DNA from: an uncultured Clostridia bacterium
Lineage (GTDB): Bacteria; Bacillota; Clostridia; Christensenellales; CAG-138
DNA: 64,000 nucleotides
Assembly: GCA_947168855.1 (NCBI GenBank)
Contig: CAMVNO010000005.1
Span: 88,439 to 152,438, forward strand
Direction of reading: 5' to 3'
The notes below the pieces were generated by a model. The model was given only the letters and a program-made list of their open reading frames with translations. It did not search any database and was not told the DNA's origin. Positions within the stretch are counted from its first letter, which is position 1. Every line of letters begins with the position of its first letter. Below, piece after piece: positions 1 through 55,035 of the stretch. A program made the position numbers and the translations under genes.

Positions 1-1692
1 TCGGGCCGCAGTTCCTCCGGAACCCGATCCGCGTCCGCGCAGAAGCGCAGCACGTCCGGCAGTTCCAATCAGCCTCCGAAGAAACGGAAGCGCAGGCGCA
101 AAAAGACGCGCCGCCTGCTCCTGATCGCCGTTTCGTTCCTCGTCTTTGCCGTTGCGGTGCTGATCGCGGCGATCCTGCTTGCGGGCAACTGCGGCAAGGG
201 CTGCAAGTCCTCTCACGGTACGCCCGTACCGACCGATCCGAACGCATCCGCAACGCCCGACGCACTCGAAACGCCCGTGCCCGTGACCGACGAAACCGTG
301 ATCTCGCACGACGCCGTGATCGAAGGCGTACAGCTTCGGGATCTGACGGTCGGCAGCGCGCGTGAACGCGTAAAGACCGCGCTTGCGGCAAAGCGCGACT
401 CGTTCGATATCACCGTCTCCTACGAAAGCTACGAACCGCTGTCCCTGAACGCGGATACGATCGGGCTTGGATACAGCGAAGCGGACCTTGAGGACGCGCT
501 GGTCGCCGCCGCGCGCGGCACGGAGCCCTCGATCTCGGTTCCGATGACCTTTGACGGCGAGATGCTTCGGAATGCGCTCTATGAGCTGAACGACAAGATT
601 CCGAACCACGCGGTCAACGCGAAGGCGGAGGTCAAGTATAAGACCAACAAGGTCGGCGACGCGAAATACTATCAGCCGTACTGGGATTTCACCGCCGGAA
701 CGAACGGCGCGAAGATCGACTTTGCCGCGCTGGAGGACGAGATCTCCGAGGCGATCCGGTCCGGCAACTATACCGCATCCCTGACGCCGTCCGTGACGGT
801 GTCCGAGCCGGAGATCACGCTCGACACGCTGAAGAGCCAGCTTACCCTGCTCGGAAGCTATTCGACGAGCTACTATTTCAAGGGCTCGACCTCCACGGAT
901 CCCGCGCTGGTGGAAAACCGCATGGGACGCGACACGAACATCACCAAGGCGATCGGCATGATGCAGGTCACGGAACTGAGACCGGGCAGGTCCTTCAGCT
1001 TCAACAAGACCACCGGCGACCGCTCGGAAAAGAAGGGCTGGGCGCTTGCGAACGCCATTCAGGACCAGACCTACACGAAGGAGCCCGGCGGCGGCGTGTG
1101 TCAGGTCAGCACGACGATCTTCAACGCCTGCCTTCGCGCGGGGATCACCAGCTTCACCCGGCGCGGGCACAGCATTCCGTCCGACTACGTGACCAAGAAT
1201 TTCCGGGACGGTCTCGGCTTCGACGCGACCGTGGACTCCGGTCATATCGATTTCGGTTTCAAGAACGATACCGGTCACACGGTCTACATGTTCATCTATA
1301 TCTCCAAGAACAAGGACAGCGCCCGCAAGAAGAACATCAATGTGGAGATCTACGGACAAAAGGAAGAAGGCGTCGAATACCGCTGCCGTAACGAGATCAT
1401 CGAAGAAACCTTCTGGAAGGACGATCCGAGCAAGTTCGAATACGTCTATGTGAACACGCTCCCGGCGGGAAAGCAGGTCCAGGTCCGCAACGCGCACGAC
1501 GGCTACGTGGTCAAGACCTACTTGGATAAATACAAGGACGGGCATTTCGTCAAGACCGTGCGCACGGAGGAAACGATCTACAAGGTCATCTATCCGAAGT
1601 ACAACGTCGGCATCGCCGATCCGACGCCCGTGCCGACCAAGTCCCCGAAACCGACGAGCACACCGGACGATTACGATTCCGACGAGCCGTAA
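1..1692 (+). CDS. VanW family protein, membrane anchored; 5' end probably upstream of window
   Basis: Frame 1 is open from base 1 (basic KKRKRRRKKTRR, then hydrophobic LLLIAVSFLVFAVAVLIAAILLAG) and runs into listed ORF 157..1692. VanW-type block GGGVCQVSTTIFNACLRAG...GHSIPSDY. Pro/Thr/Ser-rich C-terminal tail. Confidence 0.8.
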   Translation, partial: SGRSSSGTRSASAQKRSTSGSSNQPPKKRKRRRKKTRRLLLIAVSFLVFAVAVLIAAILLAGNCGKGCKSSHGTPVPTDPNASATPDALETPVPVTDETVISHDAVIEGVQLRDLTVGSARERVKTALAAKRDSFDITVSYESYEPLSLNADTIGLGYSEADLEDALVAAARGTEPSISVPMTFDGEMLRNALYELNDKIPNHAVNAKAEVKYKTNKVGDAKYYQPYWDFTAGTNGAKIDFAALEDEISEAIRSGNYTASLTPSVTVSEPEITLDTLKSQLTLLGSYSTSYYFKGSTSTDPALVENRMGRDTNITKAIGMMQVTELRPGRSFSFNKTTGDRSEKKGWALANAIQDQTYTKEPGGGVCQVSTTIFNACLRAGITSFTRRGHSIPSDYVTKNFRDGLGFDATVDSGHIDFGFKNDTGHTVYMFIYISKNKDSARKKNINVEIYGQKEEGVEYRCRNEIIEETFWKDDPSKFEYVYVNTLPAGKQVQVRNAHDGYVVKTYLDKYKDGHFVKTVRTEETIYKVIYPKYNVGIADPTPVPTKSPKPTSTPDDYDSDEP

Positions 1693-1706: not shown

Positions 1707-1751
1707 AGAGGGTGTTCAGAAACAGCTATTTGTTTCCGAACACCCTCTTTA
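1707..1751 (+). terminator. Intrinsic terminator hairpin downstream of the VanW gene
   Basis: AGAGGGTGTTCAGAAAC-loop-GTTTCCGAACACCCTCT followed by TTT. A near-identical hairpin recurs at 28436..28480. Confidence 0.6.
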
Positions 1752-1944
1752 TGAATTCTCGCTTCGCTCCGTGAATTGTCCTTTGGACATGAATTGCGCC
1801 TTCCGACGCATGAATTGACGGCAAAGCCGTCATGAAGGTCGGTTTTCCGAATGGAAAACCATCCATAATGACAATTCCATTGTCAATTCATGCCGATAGG
1901 CAATTCATGGCGCAGCCAATTCATGCAGCCGTACTGCAATTCAT
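1751..1944. repeat. Inverted pair of tandem mini-hairpin arrays (ATGAATTG x4, then CAATTCAT x4)
   Basis: Constant word at 1751, 1771, 1789, 1810 (ATGAATT orientation) and at 1884, 1901, 1917, 1937 (AATTCAT orientation). Each word is separated by a different short hairpin (TGTCCtttGGACA, TGCGccttccgaCGCA, GACGGcaaaGCCGTC, TGCCgataGGCA, TGGCgcaGCCA, TGCAGccgtaCTGCA). Central hairpin GGTTTTCCgaatGGAAAACC. Confidence 0.85.
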
Positions 1945-1945
1945 A

Positions 1946-1976
1946 GGGGATGTTAAGAACCGTTCTTAACATCCCC
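1946..1976. terminator. Long perfect hairpin between convergent genes
   Basis: GGGGATGTTAAGAAC / GTTCTTAACATCCCC arms followed by ATTTTCTTT. Confidence 0.5.
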
Positions 1977-1983
1977 ATTTTCT

Positions 1984-2754
1984 TTATCCTTCGATCCCGA
2001 ACGCCCGGAAGCTGTTTTCAAACAGCGCTTCCGATATCGGCTCCGGATCCATGCCCCTGATCTCCGCAAGCTTCTGAAGCGTCAGCGTGATGCGCCTCGG
2101 ATCGTTGCGCGTGCCGCGGAACGGCACCGGCGTCATGTACGGGCAGTCCGTTTCGATCAGAAGCCGGTCCAAAGGAAGCTTTCCTGCGATCTCCCATTGG
2201 TGCACCGCGTTTTTGAACGTCAGCGCCCCGCCGAACGCGATATAGAGCCCGAGGTCGATGCACTCCCTCGCGATCTCGTAACTTGCCGAGAAGCAGTGCA
2301 TCACGCCCGAGAGGTTCCCGCGGTACTGCCGCAGAAGGTCCATCGTGTCGCCGTGCGCCTCGCGGTCGTGGATGATGACCGGCGCGTGAAGTTCTTTCGC
2401 CAACGCAAGCTGCGCGTCGAAGCAGGTCCGCTGCACGTCGCGCGGGGAGAAATCGTAGTGGTAGTCGAGCCCGATCTCGCCGATCGCTTTCATGCGCTCG
2501 TGCCCGAGCGCTTCCCGGATCCTTTCGAGCGTTTCCGGGCGAAATTCGTCCGCCGAATGCGGATGCACGCCGGCGCTGCCGTACAGATACGGCACGCGCG
2601 CAACGAGTTCGACCACGCGGTCGATGCCCGCCTCGTCGCAGCAGGCTTCCATGACATGCGCGATCCCGGCTTCGGGCAGCGCGGCGATCAGGCTTTCGCG
2701 GTCCGCGTCAAACTGCTCGTCCAATAGATGCGCATGGGTGTCGAAGATCCGCAT
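1984..2754 (-). CDS. tatD: TatD family metal-dependent hydrolase/DNase
   Basis: MRIFDTHAHL..., GEIGLDYHY, PVIIHDREAH, LLIETDCPYMTP motifs. Start overlaps the metG stop (TGATG). Confidence 0.9.
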   Translation of the reverse strand: MRIFDTHAHLLDEQFDADRESLIAALPEAGIAHVMEACCDEAGIDRVVELVARVPYLYGSAGVHPHSADEFRPETLERIREALGHERMKAIGEIGLDYHYDFSPRDVQRTCFDAQLALAKELHAPVIIHDREAHGDTMDLLRQYRGNLSGVMHCFSASYEIARECIDLGLYIAFGGALTFKNAVHQWEIAGKLPLDRLLIETDCPYMTPVPFRGTRNDPRRITLTLQKLAEIRGMDPEPISEALFENSFRAFGIEG

Positions 2755-7266: not shown

Positions 7267-7437
7267 GACGGCTCTGCCGTCAATTCATGTGCGAAGCGCA
7301 ATTCATTCATCCGCGAAAAGCGTCCCGCTTTTCTGCGCGTCCACCTCATCCGCCTTACGGCACCTTCTCCTCGAAGGAGAAGGCTTTTGGCTGCGCACAA
7401 TTCACGCGCCGTAAGGCATATCGCGGCAAAGCAGCCG
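7267..7437. repeat. Mosaic intergenic repeat (AATTCAT mini-hairpins + CCTCATCCGCC/GGCACCTTC element + CATATCGCGGCAAAGC word)
   Basis: GACGGctctGCCGTC-AATTCA-TGTGCGaaGCGCA-ATTCATTCATCCGCG..., CCACCTCATCCGCCTTACGGCACCTTCTCCtcgaAGGAGAAGGC, CAATTCAC, GGCATATCGCGGCAAAGC. The same words occur at other loci in this window. Confidence 0.8.
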
Positions 7438-7441
7438 CTCC

Positions 7442-10054
7442 TTACTCTCCGCTGCCGCTCGACGACAGCAGCGCCAGCTTCGTTTCGCCGGCCTTGGTCA
7501 GATCGTCGTCCTTCAGAAGCACGCGGGCGATGACGAATTTCATCAGCGAATATTCCTCCGGCAGGTTTTCCATGTCGAGCTCGAGCATGACCAGCACCAG
7601 ACGTTCGTCCTCCGGATCGACCGCGGAACCGTCCTTCTTCGCCTGACGGAAGCCGATGAACCACGCGATCTCCTTCTTTGCCTGAGAATTCTTGTCCTTC
7701 TTGTTGCCGACCTCCGCGGTCCCCGTCTTGCCCGAAATGATGAAGGAGCGCACGCCGAGGTTTCTGCCGGTGCCGCCGTGCTCCTGCGGCGATTTGCAGA
7801 CGCCGATCATCATGTTCGCCATGGCCTGGGCGTTCGATTCGGAGCAGATCGTTTTCCATACCTCTGTTTCGGTATGGCGGTACGTTTCGGTGTAGTTCTG
7901 CCCCTCCGCCTGCCAGATCGACTCGACGATGTGCGGAACCGGCGCCTTGCCGCCGTTGCGGAACGCGGCGATGTAGCACGCCATCTGCAGCGGCGTCACC
8001 AGAAGCTCGCCCTGTCCGTAGCCGCTCATCGCAAGCAGGTTGTACGTCTCGGTGCTGCCCTCGTTCTTGATCTGCGATTTCTGCGCGGGCAGATCGAACG
8101 GAACGTTCTCGCCCATGCCGATAAACGAAAGGTATTCCTTGAACCGGTCCCAGCCGAGCTTCAGCGCCAGCCATGCGAAAAAGATATTGTCCGAGTCGAT
8201 GATGCTCGATTCCATATTCATCGGCGTGTGACGGTTGGAGCTGCCGGTACGCGTGATCTCGTCGATGCCGGTGTAGGCATAGGTGCCCTTCTTGACCTCC
8301 CAGACGTCCTTGTAGCCGCCGCCCGGCGTCTTGTAGCGGGCGTTGTGGATGTGCTGCATCTCCTCCTGCGGGAAGGTCGTGTTCGGCGTGACCGTGCCCG
8401 CCTCCAGCGAGCCCGCGCCGGTGAACGGCTTGAACGTCGATCCGGGCGCGTAAAGACCCTGAATCGCGCGGTTCAACATCGGCGTCTGCGGGTCGACCTT
8501 CAGCGCTTCGAACGCTTCGGTGCCGACGGCGCCGCGGCTGAACGCCTCCACGTCGTAATCCGGGAACGAATACAGCGCCTGAACCGCGCCGGAATGCGGA
8601 TTCATCACGATGACCGTGCCGGAGATGTTGTCCGTGTAGACGACGGTCTTCACAACCTCCTCAACCCGCTGCTGCATCTTGATGTCCAGCGTCAGGTGCA
8701 GGTCCTGTCCGTCCTTCGCCGGGTTGTTGTACAGCGTCTGACGGTTCGTGCCGTCGATGCCCTGAATGTACGCGTAGCCGCCCTTCTCACCGCGCAGGAT
8801 CCGTTCGTACTGCTGCTCCAGTCCCGCGTAGCCCAGCCAGCTGTCCTTCTCATATGCGTCCAGATCCTCTTCGGTGAACGTATACGAGCTGTATTCCTCG
8901 TCCTTTTTCTTCTTGTCGTCGGATTTCTTTTCGTCCGCATCCGCCTGTTTGTCCGGATCGGCGGTCTCCTCGGGCGCCGCGGTTTCCTCGGGCGTTGCGG
9001 ACTCCTCGGGCGCTTCGGTCTCTTCCGGCGCTTCGGACTCTTCCGGCGCTTCGGACTCTTCCGGCGCTTCGGTCTCCTCCGGCTCGGCGGTCGTCTCCGT
9101 CTCCTTGGGCTTGTCCGCGCTTGCGCTCTTGGCGTCGCGGGCGTTGCGGAGCTTTTCAAGGTCCTTCCACGTCGCCTTCCACATGACCGCCGCAAAACCC
9201 AAAAGATGGGACGCGCTGCGTCCGTACGGGTATGCGCGGAAGCGTGTGGAGGTCATGGCGCCGTTGCGGTCGATGCCGATGCCGGTGATGCTCAGAAGCC
9301 GCTCCTCCAGCGTATCGTCCACCTGATCTGGATAGAGCTTTGCGATAACAGCGGAAGAATTCTTGCTGTAGATCGCGTCGTGCACGATCTTTTCATATTC
9401 ATCCTGCGGCGTGCCGGAGGGCTTCAGGATCGGGATCGAAAGGATCTGCTTTAAGACCTCTTCCTTTTCCTCCTCCGGGATCTGGTTCGGAACACAGAAC
9501 ACCGTGACCGGGGAGAGGTTCTTGACCAGCAGCTCGCCGTTGCAGTCGAAGATCTCGCCGCGCTTCGGATAGTTGACGCCGACCAGCAGCTTGTCCCCCC
9601 ACTCCATCGTCGGGAAGATCAGCGCCGGCGTCCATTGAATGCCCCAGCGTCCGTTTTCATAGAGCGCGTTGATCGTGTAGTCGTTGACCATCTCGCCCAA
9701 TGCGGTATTGTAGGTCATCTGAAAATCGACGGAGCTCGTGATCGAAGCGTCCGACACCGTCCGCACGATGTAGCTGATTTCCCTAAGCCCCACCGCGTCA
9801 AAAATCTGCTGATACTTTTCGGCAAACTCCTTGGCGGAAATCATCGGATCGCCCGGCTTCGTATCGTTGCCGGTCGTGTTCTTCACGGAGTCGGACAGCA
9901 GATCGAACGCCGCCCCGTAGCTGCCCTCCGCAATGTATTCGATAAATTCCAGACAGACGTCACTGCCTTTTCCGTGCGCGCTCGCACAGCCGACCGGCAG
10001 CGCCGCGCCGAACAGCATGAGCAGAATCAATATAAAGCAAATCCCTTTTTTCAC
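7442..10054 (-). CDS. Class B penicillin-binding protein (transpeptidase) with NTF2-like N-terminal domain and acidic repeat insert
   Basis: SxxK (GSTFKP), SxN (SDN) and KTG (KTGTAE) motifs. N-terminal signal/anchor MKKGICFILILLMLFGAAL. Internal EAPEESEAPEE repeats. Confidence 0.9.
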   Translation of the reverse strand: MKKGICFILILLMLFGAALPVGCASAHGKGSDVCLEFIEYIAEGSYGAAFDLLSDSVKNTTGNDTKPGDPMISAKEFAEKYQQIFDAVGLREISYIVRTVSDASITSSVDFQMTYNTALGEMVNDYTINALYENGRWGIQWTPALIFPTMEWGDKLLVGVNYPKRGEIFDCNGELLVKNLSPVTVFCVPNQIPEEEKEEVLKQILSIPILKPSGTPQDEYEKIVHDAIYSKNSSAVIAKLYPDQVDDTLEERLLSITGIGIDRNGAMTSTRFRAYPYGRSASHLLGFAAVMWKATWKDLEKLRNARDAKSASADKPKETETTAEPEETEAPEESEAPEESEAPEETEAPEESATPEETAAPEETADPDKQADADEKKSDDKKKKDEEYSSYTFTEEDLDAYEKDSWLGYAGLEQQYERILRGEKGGYAYIQGIDGTNRQTLYNNPAKDGQDLHLTLDIKMQQRVEEVVKTVVYTDNISGTVIVMNPHSGAVQALYSFPDYDVEAFSRGAVGTEAFEALKVDPQTPMLNRAIQGLYAPGSTFKPFTGAGSLEAGTVTPNTTFPQEEMQHIHNARYKTPGGGYKDVWEVKKGTYAYTGIDEITRTGSSNRHTPMNMESSIIDSDNIFFAWLALKLGWDRFKEYLSFIGMGENVPFDLPAQKSQIKNEGSTETYNLLAMSGYGQGELLVTPLQMACYIAAFRNGGKAPVPHIVESIWQAEGQNYTETYRHTETEVWKTICSESNAQAMANMMIGVCKSPQEHGGTGRNLGVRSFIISGKTGTAEVGNKKDKNSQAKKEIAWFIGFRQAKKDGSAVDPEDERLVLVMLELDMENLPEEYSLMKFVIARVLLKDDDLTKAGETKLALLSSSGSGE
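8964..9089 (-). repeat. Seven in-frame 18-nt tandem repeats inside the PBP gene (E-[AT]-P-E-E-[ST] units)
   Basis: Plus-strand units GGTCTCCTCGGGCGCCGC / GGTTTCCTCGGGCGTTGC / GGACTCCTCGGGCGCTTC / GGTCTCTTCCGGCGCTTC / GGACTCTTCCGGCGCTTC x2 / GGTCTCCTCCGGCTCGGC. Confidence 0.9.
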
Positions 10055-11244: not shown

Positions 11245-11386
11245 TCTGTCCGCCCCGCGCGTTTTTCACCATATACAGGGGTTCTGAGATCGCGTCAGGC
11301 CCCGTCATGTCCTCGCGCGCGTTATGACCGACTGACGGAACGTCGCCCGTTATTTCTTTACTATTATTATTTATTTCCCCATCATC

Positions 11387-11490
11387 TGGTGACCGGGGTG
11401 GGGTCACCTCGTGACCGGGGAGGGGGTCAGGACGTGACAATGCGGTTGTCATCTCGTGACCGGGGGTCCCCTCATTTCGTGACAAATCGC
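11387..11490. repeat. Tandem mini-hairpin array with constant word (T)CGTGAC
   Basis: tgGTGACCggggtggGGTCACc / tcGTGACCggggagggGGTCAgga / cGTGACAatgcggTTGTCAtc / tcGTGACCgggggtcccctcattt / cGTGACaaatcgc, period 21-24 nt. Preceded by an AT-rich stretch at 11351..11380. Confidence 0.8.
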
Positions 11491-11660
11491 TCCGCCCTCC
11501 GTTTCTTCGCTTTGAACACAGCACGACCCCCCGGGCAGCTTTCCCGGAAAAAGTCCGGTTTCGGAAGGACGGCGAAACCGCGGTTTTTCGTGGACAATTC
11601 GGGAAAGGTGTGATATGATATGATTGAAAATATGCAGGATTGTCCGGAGGCAAACAAGCT

Positions 11661-13232
11661 ATGTTGATCGACAACCGAATCCTCGTCGGCAAGGGCGAGA
11701 CCGAAGCCTTTATCCGTCCCGAAATGGCGAACCGCCACGGCATGATCGCCGGCGCGACCGGCACGGGCAAGACCATCACCCTGAAGGTCATGGCGGAATC
11801 GTTCTCCGACCTCGGCGTGCCGGTATTCTTAGCGGACGTCAAGGGCGATCTAAGTGGCTGCTGCAAACCCGGCGAGATGACCGAAAAGATCGCGTCGCGG
11901 CTGACCGGCATCGGCATCGACCCCGAAGGCTTTCCCATGCGGCGGTACCCCGTGCGCTTCTGGGACGTGTACGGCGAGGGCGGACATCCCGTGCGCACGA
12001 CCGTTTCCGAGATGGGCGCGGAGTTGCTTGCCCGGCTTCTGAACCTTTCCGACGTGCAGACCGGCGTGCTGTCGATCGCGTTCCGTGTGGCGGACGACAA
12101 CGGCTGGCTGCTCATAGACCTCAAGGACCTGCGCGCGATGGTCGCCTACATCACCGAGCACGCGGCGGAGCTTCTGCATACGTACGGCAATATTTCAAAA
12201 CAGTCCGCAGGCGCGATCCAGCGCGCGCTCCTGCAGCTTGAGGACGCGGGCGGCAACCTGTTCTTCGGCGAACCCGCGATCGACCTCAATGACTGGATGC
12301 AGGTCGACGAGGACGGCAGAGGCTATATCAACGTGTTCCACTGCGCAAAGCTCTATCAGAGCCCGCTGCTTTACTCGACCTTTATGCTGTGGCTTCTTGC
12401 GGAGCTTTTCGAGCAGCTTCCGGAGGTCGGCGATCTCGAAAAGCCGAAGCTCGTGTTTTTCTTTGATGAGGCGCATCTCCTGTTTTCCGACGCGAAGCGT
12501 GCGCTGAAGAGCAAGGTCGAGCAGGTCGTGAAGCTGATCCGCTCGAAGGGCGTCGGCGTCTATTTCATCTCGCAGCAGCCGAGCGATCTGCCGGATCCGG
12601 TGCTTGCGCAGCTATCTAACCGCGTACAGCACGCGCTGCGCGCCTACACGCCCGCCGAGCAGAAGGCGATCAAGACCGCCGCGGCGACGTTCCGCGTGAA
12701 CCCGGAGTTCGACACCGAGGAGGTGCTTTCGGAGCTCGGCACCGGCGAAGCGCTGGTGAGCTTTCTGGATGAGAAGGGACGCCCGTCGATCGTCGAGCGC
12801 TGCACGATCCTGCCGCCGCAGTCGATGATGGGCATGATCGACGACGAGCGCCGGAAGAGCGAGATCATGGCGGACACGCTCTACGGCAAGTATGACGAGC
12901 CGGTCGACAACGAATCCGCCTATGAGATCCTGACCGGCAAAGCGCAGGAGGAAGCCGAAGAGAAGGCCGAGGCGGAACGCGAGGAAGCCGAAGCGAAGGA
13001 GCGCGAACGGCAGGAGAAGGAAGAAGCCAGGGCGAAGGAAAAGGCGGAAAAGGAAGAAGCCAAAGCGAAGGAAAAAGCCGAAAAGGAAGCGCTGCGCGAA
13101 AAGGCGAAGAAGAAAAAGAAGACGACCTCCGCGCTCGGCAAGGTCGCAAACTCCACGATGAATTCGATCGGCAGAGAGGTCGGAAAATCGCTGTACCGCG
13201 GGCTTTTGGGCACGCTGAAAAAACTGTTCTGA
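11661..13232 (+). CDS. DUF853 / HerA-like P-loop ATPase (YjgR family) with K/E-rich C-terminal tail
   Basis: [16 protein letters not shown]alker [12 protein letters not shown]alker B. Start set to ATG 11661 after GGAGG. Confidence 0.85.
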
Positions 13233-13247
13233 CGAAAGGAGAACGCC

Positions 13248-13829
13248 ATGCCGCAATACTGTGAAAACTGCATGAAGCTTGTCGAAGGATCCGTCTGCCC
13301 GCGCTGCAGAAACAGAAAGCTCCGCGCGGTCGAGCCCGGCGATTTCTGCCTCGTTGCAGAGGTGCACTATATGCAGGCGGAGATGCTCAAGGAGCTTTTC
13401 CGCGACAACGACATTCCCTGCACGGACCGGTCCGTGCTCGGCGCGGGGATCACCGTGAACCTCGGCGTCAATGTTGGGCTTGTCCGGCTGTACGTGCCGT
13501 ATGACCGCCTCGATTTTGCAAAGGAGCTCTATCGCGTCTATTTCAACAGCCCGGTCCAGCCCGAGGAACCCGAACCGGAGCGCGAGCTGCTCATCGGACA
13601 CGTCTACCGCCATTTCAAGGGCGGGCTGTACCGCGTCGAGGACGTGGCGAAGCATTCGGAAACGCTCGAGGAGTACGTCGTCTACCGCAAGCTGTACGGC
13701 GACCGCTCGCTGTGGATCCGTCCGAAGGCGATGTTTTTGTCCCAGGTCGACCGCGAGAAGTATCCCGACGCCATGCAGGAATACCGCTTCGAGCCGTACG
13801 ACGGCGAAGGCGCCGAAGAGACTGAATAA
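13248..13829 (+). CDS. DUF1653 domain protein with N-terminal CxxC..CxxC zinc-ribbon segment
   Basis: YRHFKGGLYRVEDVAKHSETLEEYVVYRKLYGDRSLWIRPKAMF matches my recollection of DUF1653. N-terminus CENC...CPRC. SD GAAAGGAG. Confidence 0.65.
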   Translation: MPQYCENCMKLVEGSVCPRCRNRKLRAVEPGDFCLVAEVHYMQAEMLKELFRDNDIPCTDRSVLGAGITVNLGVNVGLVRLYVPYDRLDFAKELYRVYFNSPVQPEEPEPERELLIGHVYRHFKGGLYRVEDVAKHSETLEEYVVYRKLYGDRSLWIRPKAMFLSQVDREKYPDAMQEYRFEPYDGEGAEETE

Positions 13830-13970: not shown

Positions 13971-13976
13971 CGGAAT

Positions 13977-14097
13977 CGCCATCGAGAGTGCGCGAGAGAC
14001 AAGCTTTATGACCGCACAGCAACCTGCCTGAGTAAGGTGCTAAAACTTGTTGATGGCATGTCAAAACCATTCCGTCCCGCTCGTCCGGGACTTTTTT
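13977..14097 (+). ncRNA. Candidate ~120-nt stand-alone structured small RNA or orphan riboswitch-like element (family not recognised)
   Basis: Bounded by the promoter above and the terminator GTCCCGctcgtcCGGGAC+TTTTTT (14074..14097). Long-range closing helix CGGAATCGCCATC (13971..13983) / GATGGC...ATTCCG (14052..14074). Internal helices GTGCG/CGCAC and ACAAG/CTTGT. Confidence 0.35.
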
Positions 14098-17629: not shown

Positions 17630-17712
17630 TGCGGCTTTGCCGCAATTCATGACCGCAGGTCAATTCATGTGCGCAGCACAATTCATGCCGCAGGCAATTC
17701 ATCCGCGAACGG
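17630..17712. repeat. Tandem AATTCAT mini-hairpin array
   Basis: GCAATTCA-TGACCgcaGGTCA-ATTCA-TGTGCgcaGCACA-ATTCA-TGCCgcaGGCA-ATTCATCCGCG. Confidence 0.85.
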
Positions 17713-17741
17713 GCTGCCGAGGACGTCAGCCCCTACAATAC

Positions 17742-17848
17742 TCCTCATCCGCCTCCGCTCACGCTTCGGCACCTTCCCCACATCAGGGGGAAGGCTTGTA
17801 TGGAGGCTTCCCCTTGAGGAGAAGCTCCGCCGCAGGCGGTGATGAGGT
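17742..17848. repeat. Composite palindromic element (CCTCATCCGCC ... GGCGGTGATGAGG flanking two CCTTCCCC-type hairpins)
   Basis: CCTCATCCGCC...GGCACCTTCCCCacatcaGGGGGAAGGC...GCTTCCCCttgaGGAGAAGC...GGCGGTGATGAGG. Related copies at 7358..7405, 19700..19745 and 54722..54836. Confidence 0.75.
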
Positions 17849-17889
17849 GGTATCAATTCCAATTCTCCGCAGGAGAATCCACTTGCCGC

Positions 17890-19290
17890 TCAATATCCCT
17901 TCCGCACGTCGATCACCGTGCCATCGATCGCGTTGATCGAGAGCATGGGCTCGTACGGATAGGTGCTTTCGGTCGTTTCGATATAGTCCTCGACCTCGGT
18001 GCGCGTGTTGACGCCGTAGAAGTTCCACACCGGCACGAGCAGCGCGCTGCCCCACTCGTTCGGCTCCTGAATGCGCTGCAATGTAAGCTCGACGCGGTCG
18101 ATGTCGTATTGATTCTGCGTCGTTGCGCCGTACTTGAGGTCCGGCTCGGTGATGTTCATTGCGGCGGCAAATTTCGTGTTGACCATCTTGATATAGATCT
18201 CCATGATCCTGTCAAACGGCAGCAGATTTGCGTTCTCCACGACCGTGTCGCAGACCTTAACCGGCGCGTGCCAGTCCATGCCGGCAATGCCATCGCGGTC
18301 CATCCAGAACAACAGCATTTCATATTCCCACATCGGACCCCAGATATCCGTCGAGTCCCACGTTTGCCCCCGGATAAACGACGTATTCACGCCGTTGACC
18401 GTGCGCACGCATTTCACCCAATACATCGGATCGTCCGGCTGTTCCTTGACCTGATCCGGCGCGTACAGGACCGACCAGACCGCAAAGTCGTCCATTCCGT
18501 TCTGTTTGAGGAACGCTTCGACGTCCGCTTTCGCCTGCTGCGGCGCGTAGCTGCCGTTTTGATACGTGTCGGGAACCGGGAAGCATTCGATCTCATCCGG
18601 GCGGCTCTTGACCTTCCCGTATATCAGATACGCACCCTTCCTGCTTCCCAGCGGAGAATCCGGGTCTGTGTTCAGCAAAACGAACCAGCGGTCCATTGCC
18701 TTCGTATACGCTTCGATGCCCAAGGAGGTGGATTCGTGAGAAACCGGTCCGTTTGCGCCGTTTGTCACATAGTTGTGCGCGATCGTCTGTTGCTCGCCGT
18801 AACAGCGGACCGGCTCGATGGAATCCGGAGCGTCGGCATAGCTTGCCTTCAGCCGTTCGATCTCCGCCTTGACGTCGGCAAGGCTTTCCGCACCGTGTTC
18901 ACGGCTGTATGCCTGCTCGTCCGAAATGTTTTCCGAAAGGTATTTGATGCGCTCTGCGATCTGCGTCTTTGTATAGGTGCGATCGAGATAATAGAACTCC
19001 GCATCGCCGCACAGGTTTTGAAACAGGGTCCGGATGAACGCCGGATCGAAGCCGCTCGGCTCGACGCGCACGATCGGGATCGCCGAAACGTCCGGCACCA
19101 GCACCTTTGCATCGAGATTCAGGACAAAATGCCCCTCCGCAAGATCGGCGTGATACCGATACGTCTCCGGGATCTGATACCGTTCCCGAAGCGACGGCAG
19201 AGGCGGCACGGTATACCCGTCGCCGTCGGTCTGCGTCCACCCGACCGTATCCTCCTCGGGCGCAGGCGTGGTCTTCGCCATTTCGAGCAT
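17890..19290 (-). CDS. Large exported protein of unknown function (mature part of an interrupted lipoprotein gene)
   Basis: Listed 466-aa ORF. It is in frame with an upstream lipoprotein signal peptide, separated from it by a single TAG (see 19303..19386). Confidence 0.65.
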   Translation of the reverse strand: MLEMAKTTPAPEEDTVGWTQTDGDGYTVPPLPSLRERYQIPETYRYHADLAEGHFVLNLDAKVLVPDVSAIPIVRVEPSGFDPAFIRTLFQNLCGDAEFYYLDRTYTKTQIAERIKYLSENISDEQAYSREHGAESLADVKAEIERLKASYADAPDSIEPVRCYGEQQTIAHNYVTNGANGPVSHESTSLGIEAYTKAMDRWFVLLNTDPDSPLGSRKGAYLIYGKVKSRPDEIECFPVPDTYQNGSYAPQQAKADVEAFLKQNGMDDFAVWSVLYAPDQVKEQPDDPMYWVKCVRTVNGVNTSFIRGQTWDSTDIWGPMWEYEMLLFWMDRDGIAGMDWHAPVKVCDTVVENANLLPFDRIMEIYIKMVNTKFAAAMNITEPDLKYGATTQNQYDIDRVELTLQRIQEPNEWGSALLVPVWNFYGVNTRTEVEDYIETTESTYPYEPMLSINAIDGTVIDVRKGY

Positions 19291-28435: not shown

Positions 28436-28480
28436 AGGAGTGTTCAGAAACCGTTTTGTGTTTCTGAACACCCTCTTTAT
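28436..28480 (+). terminator. Intrinsic terminator, second copy of the GTGTTCAGAAAC hairpin family
   Basis: GGAGTGTTCAGAAACcgttttgtGTTTCTGAACACCCTC followed by TTTAT. Confidence 0.6.
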
Positions 28481-29949: not shown

Positions 29950-30058
29950 GCAGAAAGTATATCATAGCGAAGCCGCTTTTGCAAAGGGTTCGTCCCTTGA
30001 CTTTGTCATGCGGAACGGATATACTCATTGTGCCGAAAGCAAATCGCGTCCCGCAAGG

Positions 30059-30210
30059 GGACATATCGCGGCAAAGCCAATTCATGACCGTCAGGTCAAT
30101 TCATTCGCCGCAGGCGAAACTCATATGGATGAATTGTGCTTCGCACATGAATTGCGGGCTTGCCGCATGAATTGATGCAGGCATCATGAATTGCGCTTCG
30201 CGCATGAAAC
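30059..30210. repeat. Inverted pair of mini-hairpin arrays (CAATTCAT x2, then ATGAATTG x4) preceded by CATATCGCGGCAAAGC
   Basis: Words at 30078 and 30097 (AATTCAT orientation) and at 30129, 30147, 30167, 30186 (ATGAATT orientation). Inserts: TGACCgtcaGGTCA, TCGCCgcaGGCGA, TGTGCttcGCACA, TGCGGgcttgCCGCA, TGATGCaGGCATCA, TGCGCttcGCGCA. Confidence 0.85.
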
Positions 30211-30955: not shown

Positions 30956-31208
30956 GATGTCCGAATTCGGGTCTGTGGTTGCAAGTCGATGCCAGTCGCA
31001 GGCGAAACGATCCACATAAGCGGGCCAAAGCGCCCGTGAGCATGGTGCGGCTTAGAAGTAAGTCCGGCCGGCGGTATTCCGCCGAGAGGGGCAGTAGTGG
31101 GGAGCAAGGCTTATGAGCGAACCCTCCTGCCGGCGAGTGTGGGGGCAAAGACCAGGTCAGCCGAAGACGGAGATCAAAAATATCCAATTCGCGAAGGGAA
31201 AAATCATC
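30956..31208 (+). promoter_or_regulatory. ~250-nt GC-rich structured 5' leader upstream of the zinc-ribbon gene (family not recognised)
   Basis: No SD-preceded ORF until ATG 31209. Many local helices (CCGAATTCGG, TGTGG...CCACA, GCGGGCcaaaGCGCCCG, GGCGGtattCCGCC, CCCTCC...GGGGG). Confidence 0.35.
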
Positions 31209-35458: not shown

Positions 35459-36679
35459 TTACTCCGTAAAGAGCGCCTTCAAAGCGTCTTCGTTCATCTT
35501 CGAGCCGATCACGCAGAGCCGCCCGATCACGCCCGCAGAACCTCTGCGGATCTCAACCTCGCCGGGCACGTGGTCAAAGTGGATCCATCTGTCGCCGTCC
35601 GCCGCGGGGACCACGCCCTTTGCGCGGAGCACCGTGCCGTAGGTCGCCGTATCGTCGAGCTTTGCGATCTTTGCGCGGATCTCGTCCTCGGTGAAGCGGT
35701 GCATTGTCTCAACGCCCCAGCTAGAAAACACCTCGTCCGCGTCGTGTCCGTGGTGATGGTGATGATGATGGTGCTCGTGCTCCTCGTCCTCATCATCGTG
35801 ATGGTGGTGGTGGCAATGCTCGTGCTCGTCATCGTCGTCATCGTCATCATGGTGATGGTGGCAGCATTCGTGCTCCTCGTCCTCATCGTCGTGATGGTGG
35901 TGATGGCAGCATTCGTGCTCCTCGTCCTCATCGTCGTGATGGTGGTGGCAATGCTCATGCTCGTCCTCATCATCGTCGTCGTGATGATGGTGGTGATGGC
36001 ATTCGCATTCCGGATCGTCGCACTCGTCCTCGTCGTGGTGATGATGCTGCTCCGCTTTGAGCGCCTCCATGTGCGCCTTCAGCGTATCGCGGCTTTCGAT
36101 CGCCTTGACAAGATCCGCGCCCGCAAGCGAATCCCACGGCGCGGCGACGACCGTCGCCTCCGGGTTCAGCTCGCGCACCATGTCAAGGACTTCCTTGAGA
36201 CGCTCTTCGGAAACGTCCTGCGAACGGCTCAGGATCACACAGTCCGCGGCTTCGATCTGGTTCACGTAGAACTCGCCGAAGTTCTTGCGGTAGACGCGCG
36301 CCTTCTTGGCGTCGACGACCGCGATGCAGCTATTGATCACGACGTCGTCGGTGAGAACGCCGCTGACCGCGCGCTTGACGTCAGAGAGCTTTCCGACGCC
36401 GGACGGCTCGATCAGGATGCGGTCCGGATGGAACTCCTTCAGCACCTTTTTCAGCGCTTCGGAAAAATCGCCAACGAGCGAGCAGCAGATACAGCCGGAG
36501 TTCATCTCCGTGATCTCGATGCCCGCCTCCTGCAGAAATGCGCCGTCGATGCCGATCTCGCCGAATTCGTTTTCGATCAGCACGAGCTTTTCGCCGTTGA
36601 AGCCGTCCGCGATCAGTTTTTTAATGAGCGTCGTCTTGCCTGCGCCTAAGAACCCGCTGAAAATATCAATCTTCGTCAT
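35459..36679 (-). CDS. CobW-family (COG0523) GTPase metallochaperone with giant His/Cys/Asp/Glu insert
   Basis: GFLGAGKTTL Walker A, SGCICCSL (CxCC), IEPSGV, CobW_C-like end (YGTVLRAKGVV). Confidence 0.9.
   Translation of the reverse strand: MTKIDIFSGFLGAGKTTLIKKLIADGFNGEKLVLIENEFGEIGIDGAFLQEAGIEITEMNSGCICCSLVGDFSEALKKVLKEFHPDRILIEPSGVGKLSDVKRAVSGVLTDDVVINSCIAVVDAKKARVYRKNFGEFYVNQIEAADCVILSRSQDVSEERLKEVLDMVRELNPEATVVAAPWDSLAGADLVKAIESRDTLKAHMEALKAEQHHHHDEDECDDPECECHHHHHHDDDDEDEHEHCHHHHDDEDEEHECCHHHHHDDEDEEHECCHHHHDDDDDDDEHEHCHHHHHDDEDEEHEHHHHHHHHGHDADEVFSSWGVETMHRFTEDEIRAKIAKLDDTATYGTVLRAKGVVPAADGDRWIHFDHVPGEVEIRRGSAGVIGRLCVIGSKMNEDALKALFTE
35729..36050 (-). repeat. Coding low-complexity/tandem repeat: ~107-residue His-rich metal-binding insert
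   Basis: HHHHDEDECDDPECECHHHHHHDDDDEDEHEHCHHHHDDEDEEHECCHHHHHDDEDEEHECCHHHHDDDDDDDEHEHCHHHHHDDEDEEHEHHHHHHHHGH. My count is 44 His and 9 Cys. The 48-nt unit encoding HECCHHHH(H)DDEDEE is duplicated in tandem. Confidence 0.9.
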
Positions 36680-36758
36680 GTATATCCTTCTTTCCTTCGG
36701 GGTCTCCCCCGCCTTTTCTCGCCTGCTATCCTATCACACTTTGCGGAATTTGCAAGCA

Positions 36759-37655
36759 TTATATTGTAGATTTTTTGTGAGAATCGTCTATCATCCGCAA
36801 GCCGAAGCGCACGGCAAGCGAATCGGTCGGGCATGCGCGCGCGCACCGTCCGCAGCGGATGCATTCCGCGGAATTGAACTGCGCTTTCGGGTCGATGCCC
36901 ATCGGACAGACCGAAGCGCACTTGCCGCAGTCCACGCACTTTTCGGAATCGAAGCGCAGGTGCACGAGCGCGATGCGGTTGAAGCATCCGTAGATCGCGC
37001 CGAGCGGGCACAGATACCGGCAGAACGGACGGGAAATCAGAAGCGACAGCAGAAGCAGCGAAGCGAGCACGCCGACCTTCCACCAGAACAGGAAGCCGAG
37101 CTGTCCCCGAAGCGACGGATTCGCAAGCACCAGCGGGATCCCGCCGAACAGCGTACCCGACGGACACAGAAGCTTACAGAACCACGGCACGAGCACGCCT
37201 TTGAACGCCGATAAAAGCGGCAGCCCGATCACGAGCACGCCGAGCACGGCGTATTTGAGCCACCGAAGATACCGTTCGAAGCGGAACGTGCGGATCTTTT
37301 TGAAGAACGGAATGCGGTAAACAAGGTCCTGCACCCATCCGAACGGGCAGAGCCAGCCGCAGATCCAGCGTCCGAGCGTAAGTCCGAACAACAGCAAAAA
37401 ACCGAGCACGTAGAACGGGAACGCGGGCTTTTTCCAGCCGCCGTTCATGGTGTTTTGCAGGGAACCGATCGGACACGCACCGATCGCCGCGGGACAGGAA
37501 TAGCAGTTCAGCCCCGGCACGCAGACGGACTTTGTTTTGCCCTGCTCGATCGTACCGAGGAAGAAATGATGCAGTTTCGGGTTCATCAGAAGGAACGCCG
37601 CCGCCTGCACGGTCAGGCGTTTCCACTCGCCTTTCACACGCTTTGCCTTAGCCAA
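36759..37655 (-). CDS. NapH/MauN-type membrane 4Fe-4S polyferredoxin
   Basis: CYSCPAAIGACPIGSLQ, RWICGWLCPFGW, FCRYLCPLGA, plus C-terminal CVDCGKCASVCP and CIRCGRCARACP. Probable TTG start overlapping the micro-ORF end. Confidence 0.85.
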   Translation of the reverse strand: MAKAKRVKGEWKRLTVQAAAFLLMNPKLHHFFLGTIEQGKTKSVCVPGLNCYSCPAAIGACPIGSLQNTMNGGWKKPAFPFYVLGFLLLFGLTLGRWICGWLCPFGWVQDLVYRIPFFKKIRTFRFERYLRWLKYAVLGVLVIGLPLLSAFKGVLVPWFCKLLCPSGTLFGGIPLVLANPSLRGQLGFLFWWKVGVLASLLLLSLLISRPFCRYLCPLGAIYGCFNRIALVHLRFDSEKCVDCGKCASVCPMGIDPKAQFNSAECIRCGRCARACPTDSLAVRFGLRMIDDSHKKSTI

Positions 37656-46152: not shown

Positions 46153-46244
46153 CGCGCCGCGTAGCGGCATATCGCGCCGTCAGGCATATCGCGCCCCGCA
46201 GGGGCATATTGCGTCCCGATAGGGACATATCGCGCCGTCAGGCA
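46153..46244. repeat. Tandem mini-hairpin array with constant word CATATCGCG
   Basis: CCGCgtaGCGG-CATATCGCG-CCgtcaGG-CATATCGCG-CCCCgcaGGGG-CATATTGCG-TCCCgataGGGA-CATATCGCG-CCgtcaGG-CAT. Confidence 0.85.
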
Positions 46245-46283
46245 TAAAAAGATCCTCCGCCGACGTGTGGAGGACCGTTTGTT

Positions 46284-52795: not shown

Positions 52796-53010
52796 GCTTC
52801 GGACGGTTCGTCCGAACACACACACCCGCCGAGAGCGCCGGGCTTCGGTCCGGCGCTCTCAGACTGTCGTAAAAGGGGTCAGCCTGTTTGCGGCGAGGAC
52901 AAATAAAGGAATACTTGCCGGAAGAAAAGGCGCAAGTAACGCCTTTTCTTTTCATTATTTCGCCGCAAACGATCCGCCTTCCCGACAGCCTGGTCAGCGT
53001 GAAAAAAGCA

Positions 53011-54714: not shown

Positions 54715-55035
54715 ATCCAAAGGCCTTCCCCTTGAGGGGAAGGTGCCGAGGAACGAGGCGGATGAGGTGTCAGATTCGAGTAAGCAACACCTCATCAGTC
54801 AACTTCGTTGCCAGCTTCCCCTCAAGGGGAAGCCTTTTTTCATCAAAGGCGCGCTTATACACTACCTGCGGCGGTGATACCCTCCTTTGTCGGGACGCGC
54901 GCTTGGCTCTCCTGTGCAAGGGGAGCTGTCGAGGCTTGCCGAGACTGAGGGGTTGTAAAGCCGGCAGACCTGTACTCGACAACCCTTCCGTCTCGCTCCG
55001 CGATCCACCTCCCCTTGCACAGGGGAGGCAAGATG
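54715..55035. repeat. Cluster of composite palindromic intergenic elements
   Basis: GGCCTTCCCCttgaGGGGAAGGTGCC...GGCGGATGAGGTG...CACCTCATC...GCTTCCCCtcaaGGGGAAGC (54722..54836). Then CTCCTGTGCAAGGGGAG...CTCCCCTTGCACAGGGGAG (about 54910..55030). Confidence 0.75.

Follow-up and report, generated by a model that had tools for sequence, protein, structure and literature searches.

The element and its genomic setting

The DNA considered here, referred to below as the window, is a stretch of 64,000 nucleotides from an uncultured Clostridia bacterium (contig CAMVNO010000005.1, positions 88,439 to 152,438). Near its left end a VanW-like gene (157..1692, + strand) and the convergent tatD gene (1984..2754, - strand; metG adjoins tatD on this flank) leave a gap of 291 bp, which houses a discrete repeat of about 270 bp. 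This element spans positions 1707-1976, with a core at 1751-1944 and two hairpins, T1 and T2, as its bounds. Within the core, four CATGAATTG-type words oppose four CAATTCATG-type words across a central hairpin. The left arm holds two exact CATGAATTG copies (1788-1796 and 1809-1817), two words with one mismatch (ATGAATTC at 1751-1758 and CGTGAATTG at 1770-1778) and a decayed fifth word (CATGAAGG at 1831-1838), while in the right arm CAATTCATG is exact at 1884, 1901 and 1917 and is followed by CAATTCAT at 1937. The two arms diverge from the centre, CAATTCATG being read outwards in each. Each gap between words is filled by a short, perfect, GC-rich hairpin, whose base takes in the TG of a word and the CA of the word after it.

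A preliminary description of this DNA, made from the letters alone, had reported constant words alternating with variable hairpins. The sequence is as described there and all five hairpins that it listed are present; the opposition of four words to four holds for the arms, although the first two left-arm words are imperfect. Two hairpins can be added, TGACGGCaaaGCCGTCA at 1816-1832 and TGACAATtccATTGTCA at 1869-1885. T1 and T2, which flank the stretch reported earlier, are part of the same 1707-1976 unit, and they are imperfect inverted repeats of one another, the 5' arm of T2, GGGGATGTTAAGAAC, resembling the T1 arm GAGGGTGTTCAGAAAC. Both have the GC-rich stem and subsequent T-run of an intrinsic terminator and are predicted as such by a terminator scan, T1 on the - strand and T2 on the + strand. 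The parts of the element are as follows (L and a number denote loci from other genomes).

1707..1748, - strand: terminal hairpin T1, 18 pairs, terminator-like in the terminator scan; left imperfect terminal inverted repeat; nine covarying pairs in helix 1 of the element alignment; bounds the 262-bp identical repeat of L060 and L071
1751..1838, canonical CAATTCATG reading on the - strand: left arm, defined by its words and by covariation in helices 2-5
1759-1769, 1777-1789, 1795-1810 and 1816-1832: left-arm hairpins, interleaved with the words
1841..1860, no strand: central hairpin GGTTTTCCgaatGGAAAACC, that is GGTTTTCC-gaat-GGAAAACC; G-C to A-T compensatory change in L060, L071 and L107 (helix 6); opens the half-element of L069
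1869..1944, + strand: right arm, a hairpin at 1869-1885 and then four words with the hairpins CC-GATA-GG, GC-GCA-GC and CAG-CCGTA-CTG between them; covariation in helices 7-10
1946..1976, + strand: terminal hairpin T2, terminator-like, 14 pairs, with ATTTTCTTT after it; right imperfect terminal inverted repeat; bounds the repeat in L060 and L071, as T1 does

Comparison with chance expectation

Allowing at most one mismatch, the word occurs 24 times in the window versus 13.2 +/- 3.2 times after shuffling, and none of 100 shuffles reaches 24. A detector of word-plus-hairpin arrays finds four arrays in the window under strict settings and six true arrays under relaxed ones, and gives no array in either 30 Markov-simulated copies of the window or 221 kb of simulated loci. 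The folding-energy z-scores of the element are -6.2 as DNA, -7.8 as RNA of the + strand and -5.9 as RNA of the - strand. Since the word counts exceed all shuffles, the detector stays blank on simulated sequence and the z-scores lie between -6 and -8, the arrays are not a product of chance. The predicted minimum-energy fold pairs left-arm words with right-arm words, and the resulting rod of about 200 nt has a predicted folding energy of -80 kcal/mol as RNA and -45 as DNA.

A coding role of the arrays was considered and rejected: open reading frames (ORFs) running over them, such as 17637..17936, are spurious, because the period shifts between 16 and 21 nt and the frame is not kept. The relaxed detector also returned a false positive: the gene for a penicillin-binding protein contains in its middle part an 18-nt coding repeat, (APEE[ST]E)n, at 8961-9092.

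Hairpin structure and loop signature

The stems of the element are kept by compensatory change, as the preliminary description had argued. In a five-sequence alignment of the element, in which 90% of the cells are paired, 24 of 84 pairs have changed on both sides, versus 10.5 +/- 2.3 when shuffled (0 of 500 shuffles reach the observed value) and 3-5 when the partners are slid. Across all loci, perfect stems of at least 4 bp are present in 88% of 493 units, which include 335 distinct spacer sequences, so that the constant part is the linker and the palindrome is what varies. The earlier comparison to a reversed CRISPR logic is no more than a description, the variable parts being palindromes and not guides.

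Most loops are very short (3 nt in 253 of the units and 4 nt in 151) and they have a marked polarity: read on the CAATTCATG strand, 225 are of the form G..A versus four of the form T..C. The closing pair of the G..A loops is 5'-C/G-3' in 205 of 218 cases, tetraloops are GNRA in 39 cases versus GNYA in 45, and the commonest units include the exact heptamers GCGAAGC and CCGAAGG. This loop rule, C(GNA)G or C(GNNA)G, is that of mini-hairpin DNA, GCGNAGC and GCGNNAGC, the stability of which depends on the C-G closing pair (PMC3201870) and the RNA versions of which melt far lower than the DNA (PMC13037366). The polarity tracks the element independently of the orientation of the host genes and flips at the centre of inverted pairs; one transcript running across both arms therefore cannot explain it. 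We infer that it reflects a single-stranded stage of the element's own, more likely DNA than RNA.

The rule for loop and closing pair is shared with the d(GCGNAGC)/d(GCGNNAGC) mini-hairpins at ssi sites (the phage G4 origin; ssiA and ssiB of RSF1010), where ssiA and ssiB likewise form an inverted pair, one on each strand. However, the ssi mini-hairpins are single hairpins in replicon origins that are recognised by primases, whereas the present family lines up 3-11 hairpins per array and does so at numerous intergenic sites of the chromosome. The C(GNA)G signature, tied as it is to one strand, suggests a genome-scale use of "extraordinarily stable" DNA mini-hairpins in vivo.

A dispersed unit with insertion and deletion differences

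The element exists as a dispersed unit, with insertion/deletion differences between relatives. Positions 1751-1990 of the window align at 78% to two sites of another metagenome-assembled genome (MAG), on contigs L060 and L071. The two 8-kb loci there have unrelated contexts and only 291 bp in common, of which 262 bp are identical. The common stretch runs from a T1-type to a T2-type hairpin and its ends are imperfect inverted repeats, AAGGGGMTGTTMARAAAC. A small, non-coding, multi-copy unit of about 262-291 bp with terminal inverted repeats has the make-up of a miniature inverted-repeat transposable element (MITE); homologues of the unit occur in the window, L107 and L069, in addition to the two identical copies within one MAG.

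The preliminary description had proposed comparing orthologous sites for gain and loss, and this comparison does reveal modules that the window lacks. The window is 80-88% identical over several kb to L063, from a sheep-rumen Clostridia MAG, and to L069. L063 carries an insertion of 285 bp, made up of a nine-word array and a second repeat module, that is absent at the orthologous window site (36782-36794), and L069 carries a half-element of about 190 bp, composed of the central hairpin, four words and a hairpin of T1 type, that is absent near window position 53000. Units have also been duplicated in tandem inside the arrays of L113, L127 and L094. The insertion in L063 (at about 4035) starts directly after ATCAT, a half-word-like motif that is also found at the empty window site, which hints at word-like microhomology at insertion points.

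The Correia/NEMIS, RUP, BOX and ERIC MITEs are likewise non-autonomous sequences of 100-300 bp with terminal inverted repeats and long transcript hairpins, can supply terminators or RNase III sites and vary in presence between strains. They differ from the present family in having no internal word-plus-hairpin arrays, and Correia elements in addition have TA target duplications and an IHF site, whereas no target duplication is seen in the window family.

Distribution across Clostridia

One genome per species was scanned for three words 5-16 nt apart, and this returned at least 120 loci; the enrichment of the family beyond the window is strong. Among the matches listed, about 113 are true arrays, with the identical 9-mer, and their hosts are nearly all Clostridia MAGs, mostly from rumen or gut, with a GC content of 0.34-0.65. 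Matches in other phyla (L003, L010, L025, L027, L085, L088 and L117) were plain tandem repeats without hairpins and were discarded. Viral contigs gave only 14 matches, so a phage vector is not indicated, and a literature search with the 9-mer gave primer matches only. Being frequent in gut and rumen MAGs, the arrays likely affect transcript ends, assembly breaks and intergenic annotation.

The arrays are mostly intergenic: 122 of 133 lie outside ORFs of at least 110 aa, and the gene contexts are tandem in 51 cases, convergent in 17 and divergent in 15. In the census, pairs that diverge, as at 1751-1944, number 58 and pairs that converge 16, while 76 arrays have no partner. Four words per arm is the usual number, and the centre is most often 27 nt long. 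The word numbers of paired arms, a test of obligatory arm-arm pairing, show no correlation, since both arms simply peak at four words. In one contig (L053, JAFTKM010000008.1) four same-strand CAATTCATG arrays follow each other about 1 kb apart, a spacing that suggests one array per successive intergenic gap of an operon-like region.

Relation to the Gut-1 motif

The architecture had been thought undescribed, but it is not: the Gut-1 motif (RF01706) has the same grammar. Its consensus comprises three hairpins with a constant word, GUGAAAU or GUGAUAU, between them (PMC2864571), and in the published seed alignment GUGAUAU arrays, preceded by a terminator, face AUAUCAC arrays, i.e. form inverted pairs. 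Its authors rated Gut-1 a certain RNA with covariation (PMC2864571) and reported it in human-gut metagenomes only (Weinberg et al. 2010, PMC2864571). Since 2010 it has been an orphan motif, without an organism, neighbouring gene or function assigned, and our search of the literature for Gut-1 or RF01706 returned no later paper that mentions it.

At the Rfam gathering threshold, no family covers the CAATTCATG arrays of the window and 18 array-bearing loci. In a permissive search, 1744-1821 (+ strand) of the window matches Gut-1 with 17.9 bits (E = 0.15-0.69), short of the threshold of 50; the hairpins and words nevertheless align to the model (cmscan), with three tandem hairpins and constant linkers. 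The low score reflects the word itself, the window linker being a variant, CAUGAAUUG, of the Gut-1 purine-UGAWAU. Scores of 51-77 bits are reached in L194, L196, L178, L138 and L127, where the words are GUGAAAU, GUGAUAU or AUGAUAU. These above-threshold matches lie 100-250 bp upstream of genes of the PF05635 family, often just past a tRNA gene. In five gut-metagenome loci (L138, L155, L178, L182 and L196) a tRNA gene and its terminator are directly followed by a Gut-1 array and a PF05635 gene.

Gut-1 and the present family thus share at least three short covarying hairpins with a constant AT-rich 7-nt word between them, an inverted second array and a preceding terminator (in the Gut-1 seed), an occurrence in gut Clostridia-type sequences and a position upstream of PF05635 genes. 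Gut-1, in contrast, was described as an orphan small RNA, while its organism, its gene association, the inverted-pair architecture and the dispersed gene-less copies went un-noted. The array grammar has therefore been described before, in that guise, and the window copy is a sub-threshold variant of it. What is new is that Gut-1 and the arrays studied here sit upstream of or around PF05635 genes, the first genomic context for Gut-1.

Association with PF05635 proteins

The most recurrent ORF family near the arrays, present in 14 of the 120 loci listed, is a 118-aa protein that matches PF05635, the 23S rRNA intervening-sequence protein (87 bits), TIGR02436 (103 bits) and the PDB structure 2RLD; it is a four-helix bundle of S23p/Avd-like type. 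Its gene directly adjoins arrays in 12 of the 14 loci, where the usual order is left arm, centre, right arm, some 20-60 nt and then the start codon. Two divergent members of the family, in L028 and L096, have flanking arrays that keep the grammar but use other words. Neither PADLOC nor PHROGs has a match for this four-helix protein.

An independent scan of metagenomes was seeded with the protein alone and gave 80 loci, which form 44 clusters at 90% identity. In 34 of the 44 an array lies within 400 bp of the gene; 64 arrays were counted in 59 kb near the gene, versus seven in 201 kb further off and none in 221 kb of simulated sequence. The words vary between lineages (AATTCAT, AAATCAT, ATTTCAT, ATTTCAC, ATATCAC, ATTTAGC and ATATCGA) and follow the pattern A-W-W-T-C/A-N.

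Repeated words also accompany the gene elsewhere. We sampled ten PF05635 genes from plasmid records (L215-L224), nine of them from other phyla, i.e. cyanobacteria, Bacteroidota, Spirochaetota and Chloroflexota (Nostoc, Planktothrix, Euhalothece, Gloeocapsa, Pseudanabaena, Bernardetia, Chondrinema, Treponema and Chlorohelix); the tenth belongs to Monoglobus, an isolate of the Clostridia. Each of the ten has short repeated words of 7-8 nt in its vicinity, with no hairpin separating one word from another. An inverted arrangement on the two sides of the gene is clear in at least five, as in Nostoc, with four copies of AATTCAAA upstream and four of TTTGAATT downstream; the Monoglobus gene has an inverted repeat and no tandem array. 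A crude statistic of 7-mer sharing could not separate a signal of inverted flanks in the other phyla from the AT-rich background, and the inverted-flank claim therefore rests on direct reading of the ten loci. Some of the sampled genes are found inside operons (hsdS-hsdR, DUF1156-HEPN, or an RND adaptor and permease) and others beside cas1 or a DNA methyltransferase gene.

A parallel in the literature is the intervening sequence in the 23S rRNA of Coxiella, in which an ORF for an S23p protein is accompanied by a 28-bp inverted-repeat stem and by GACAGAT heptamers, repeated in tandem and varying in number (PMC4990558). The stem is cut by RNase III, and the sequence is regarded as a selfish element whose mobility is unknown (PMC4990558). 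Like the cassettes described here, the S23p intervening sequences of Coxiella and Leptospira involve the PF05635/TIGR02436 family, which forms a pentameric four-helix bundle (PMC4990558), and have inverted terminal repeats made of tandem short words (GACAGAT, in variable copy number). The window copy has such inverted arrays, capable of forming a stem, with four words facing four. It differs in lacking the ORF, which its 65-nt centre is too small to encode, in lying outside an rRNA gene, and in that its words are interleaved with mini-hairpins and its word-to-word helices are only 9 bp long. In Clostridia, moreover, the arms are mostly both upstream of the gene. Apart from the Coxiella heptamers (PMC4990558), our literature search on PF05635, TIGR02436 and S23p returned no paper that ties the protein to such arrays. 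Structures of S23p/PF05635 proteins have been solved, but no role is known for them outside diversity-generating retroelements. The association thus provides a concrete, testable context for the Clostridia repeat family, Gut-1 and the PF05635 genes alike, with the Coxiella intervening sequence as a literature parallel.

Possible explanations

We consider it somewhat probable that the window copy is a gene-less, non-autonomous copy of a family of PF05635 cassettes, with MITE- or REP-like behaviour (REP, repetitive extragenic palindromic), a Gut-1-like grammar and a relation to S23p proteins like that of the intervening sequences. The element would then be a MITE-like or REP-like derivative of gene-carrying cassettes, which themselves may parallel the S23p-encoding 23S rRNA intervening sequence in having an ORF between inverted tandem short words. 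Wherever the region becomes single-stranded, as DNA or in a read-through transcript, each unit would fold into a mini-hairpin, and the arms may also pair word to word, giving the compact rod of about 200 nt that folding predicts. At this particular site, T1 and T2 would terminate transcription from both convergent genes and the rod could serve as a barrier to 3'-exonucleases or as a processing site. The loop signature, being independent of the host genes, points to a single-stranded intermediate or target, most likely DNA, in the propagation of the element. The pentameric S23p-like protein possibly binds the repeated words.

A more general version of this idea we hold only tentatively, and think it may well be wrong: PF05635 genes and their flanking inverted word arrays might constitute one widespread, unrecognised class of selfish cassettes. 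That class would span Clostridia (where DNA-type mini-hairpins alternate with the words, Gut-1 included), the plain heptamer and octamer arrays of cyanobacteria and Bacteroidota, and the 23S intervening sequences. The words, once single-stranded, would be bound by its pentameric protein, and the hundreds of gene-less Clostridia arrays, the one at 1751-1944 among them, would be its non-autonomous derivatives, playing the part that REPs play for REP-associated tyrosine transposases (RAYTs), with a partner that is not an enzyme.

Several observations weigh against the cassette reading of the window copy. The PF05635 gene is absent from the 64-kb window, where the best tblastn match (E 0.007, at 13612-13761) is a DUF1653 protein, so that a trans-acting partner in this genome is unproven. 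The 118-aa protein has no catalytic domain and is not a nuclease, and the arms at most Clostridia loci do not enclose the gene but both precede it, unlike the layout of intervening sequences. No direct repeats indicative of target-site duplication lie beside the L060, L071 and window copies or the L063 and L069 insertions, and no cognate transposase was identified among the array neighbours. Mobility is thus deduced solely from the identity of copies and from indel differences, and recombination or gene conversion could give the same copy pattern. The orientation bias that the preliminary description had suggested looking for is not significant (20 arrays in the sense of the gene versus 31 opposite), and a same-strand terminator follows only 10 of 143 arrays, which is no enrichment. 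A role as terminator or RNA stabiliser would therefore be local and not general. In the window copy several loops are non-canonical (AAA, CCGTA and one of 8 nt). Finally, C-G-closed G..A loops stabilise RNA too, so that the preference for DNA over RNA is not proven.

An alternative that we consider unlikely is that the arrays are stand-alone small RNAs, whose transcribed arms would titrate or scaffold an RNA-binding protein through the linker words, in the manner of a CsrB-type sponge with its motif in the linkers. Rfam does class Gut-1 as a small RNA, and its authors held it to be a certain RNA; T1 and T2 are oriented so as to end outward transcripts, G..A loops would be present in the outward transcript of either arm, and promoter-like sequence can be seen by eye just upstream of the arrays in L066 and L070. 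However, no sigma-70-like promoter was found in or around the window element, the scarcity of same-strand terminators noted above applies here as well, and the modal centre of 27 nt is too short for two divergent promoters. The abundance of triloops (253) and the near parity of GNYA and GNRA tetraloops, moreover, fit DNA hairpins better than RNA ones. Rather improbable, in our view, is a classical system of REPs and bacterial interspersed mosaic elements (BIMEs), such as those of Enterobacteria and Pseudomonas, in which a RAYT or a Y1 transposase of the IS200/IS605 type, encoded elsewhere in the genome, would act on the hairpins as single-stranded DNA. This had been among the initial suggestions, and its behavioural half stands, since the arrays are abundant, dispersed intergenic palindromic mosaics found in both orientations, in inverted pairs and at 3' untranslated regions or convergent sites. 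The strand-specific hairpin signature would suit recognition of single-stranded DNA, and in both systems the proposed partner is a single-copy gene flanked by repeats. The enzymatic half is not supported: no REP-associated tyrosine transposase recurs near the roughly 113 listed true arrays, no Y1 transposase is among the ten largest recurrent ORF clusters (those annotated) of the 120 loci listed, and the ORFs beside the arrays in the window are housekeeping genes. The family that arrays do flank, flanking being the criterion by which RAYTs are linked to REPs, is PF05635/TIGR02436, a small helical bundle without a nuclease motif, whereas the REP partner is a Y1 HUH transposase. Furthermore, a REP unit consists of a conserved imperfect palindrome with a GTAG-like 5' tetranucleotide, whereas here no such tetranucleotide is conserved, the linker is conserved and the palindromes vary, the reverse of REP recognition.

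It is more improbable again that we are looking at a local, host-evolved structure, a bidirectional terminator or mRNA 3'-end protection that expanded by slippage and has neither mobility nor a protein partner. Such a structure would account for the convergent-gene site with a terminator-like hairpin at each end, and the tandem unit duplications seen elsewhere could be due to the same process. However, it would leave unexplained the recurrence of the same 9-mer, and of the whole element, in many unrelated contexts and genomes, as well as the strong tie to one protein family, and the 262-bp-identical copies at unrelated loci of one MAG already disfavour it. As for a CRISPR-like or TIGR-like guide array, or the RNA repeats of a type III antitoxin, we give these almost no credence. 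The tandem alternation of constant and variable segments does recall them, but the anatomy effectively refutes the idea: a 9-nt word recurs with a period of 16-21 nt, and the variable segments of 5-17 nt are self-complementary, whereas such arrays have repeats of at least 23 nt and non-palindromic spacers. The neighbours are VanW, tatD and metG, with no adjacent cas, tas or toxin genes; there are many loci per genome, and neither Rfam nor PADLOC gives a match in support. The cassette reading is thus the one that we prefer for the window element.

Other repeats and features of the window

The preliminary description had counted five further loci of the same grammar in the window. Four of these are confirmed, all intergenic: arrays of the CAATTCATG word occur at three of them, and a second word, CATATCGCG, forms an array at the fourth (46153-46246) and is mixed with CAATTCATG at 30040 and 7417.

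7281..7425, + strand: second locus, with CAATTCATG at 7281, CAATTCATT at 7299, CAATTCACG at 7398 and CATATCGCG at 7417; module 2 hairpin (see below) at 7340-7385; between a penicillin-binding-protein gene and a murG-like gene, both on the - strand
17643..17703, + strand: third locus, a single four-word array with the hairpins ACC-GCA-GGT, TGC-GCA-GCA and CC-GCA-GG; module 2 following at 17740-17797; flanked by - strand genes for a DUF6034 protein and a response regulator
30040..30209, no single strand: fourth locus, two convergent arrays of mixed words, with (CAT)ATCGCG and CAATTCATG on the + strand at 30040-30124 and four copies of CATGAATTG, also on the + strand, at 30128-30209; the genes on either side, mutY-like and DUF436, are divergent
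46153..46246, + strand: fifth locus, four to five copies of CATATCGCG, the hairpins being C(GNA)G or C(GNNA)G; a gene for an RNase T-like exonuclease ends with its stop codon on one side and a terminator-like hairpin (by eye) lies on the other

The remaining locus, at 11382-11480 and attributed to a TCGTGAC word, is of another kind: the constant GTGAC(C)/(G)GTCAC is the stem itself and the loops are G-rich, a grammar unlike that of the family. This hairpin array lies upstream of a HerA-like helicase gene (11628..13232).

A frequent neighbour of the arrays is a second repeat, module 2, of the form CCTCATCCGCC ... GGCACCTTCYCC-loop-GGRGAAGGC (7340-7385, 17740-17797 and 54725-54840). It forms an inverted pair near 54.7 kb, recurs within the insertion of L063 and matches a stretch of L114 at 90% identity. 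A lone terminator-like hairpin at 28438-28478, GAGTGTTCAGAAAC...GTTTCTGAACACCCTC, has arms nearly identical to those of T1; the end hairpins therefore make up a repeat family of their own.

The + strand of the window also encodes two structured RNAs, a raiA motif (30962-31169, 197 bits) and a SAM riboswitch (13976-14059, 51 bits). Lastly, a coding tandem repeat of 45 nt at 35753-36001 specifies a low-complexity segment rich in His, Asp, Glu and Cys (HHHHDDEDEEHEC...), and the gene that contains it (35459..36730, - strand) resembles, judging from its translation, a CobW/COG0523-type GTPase.

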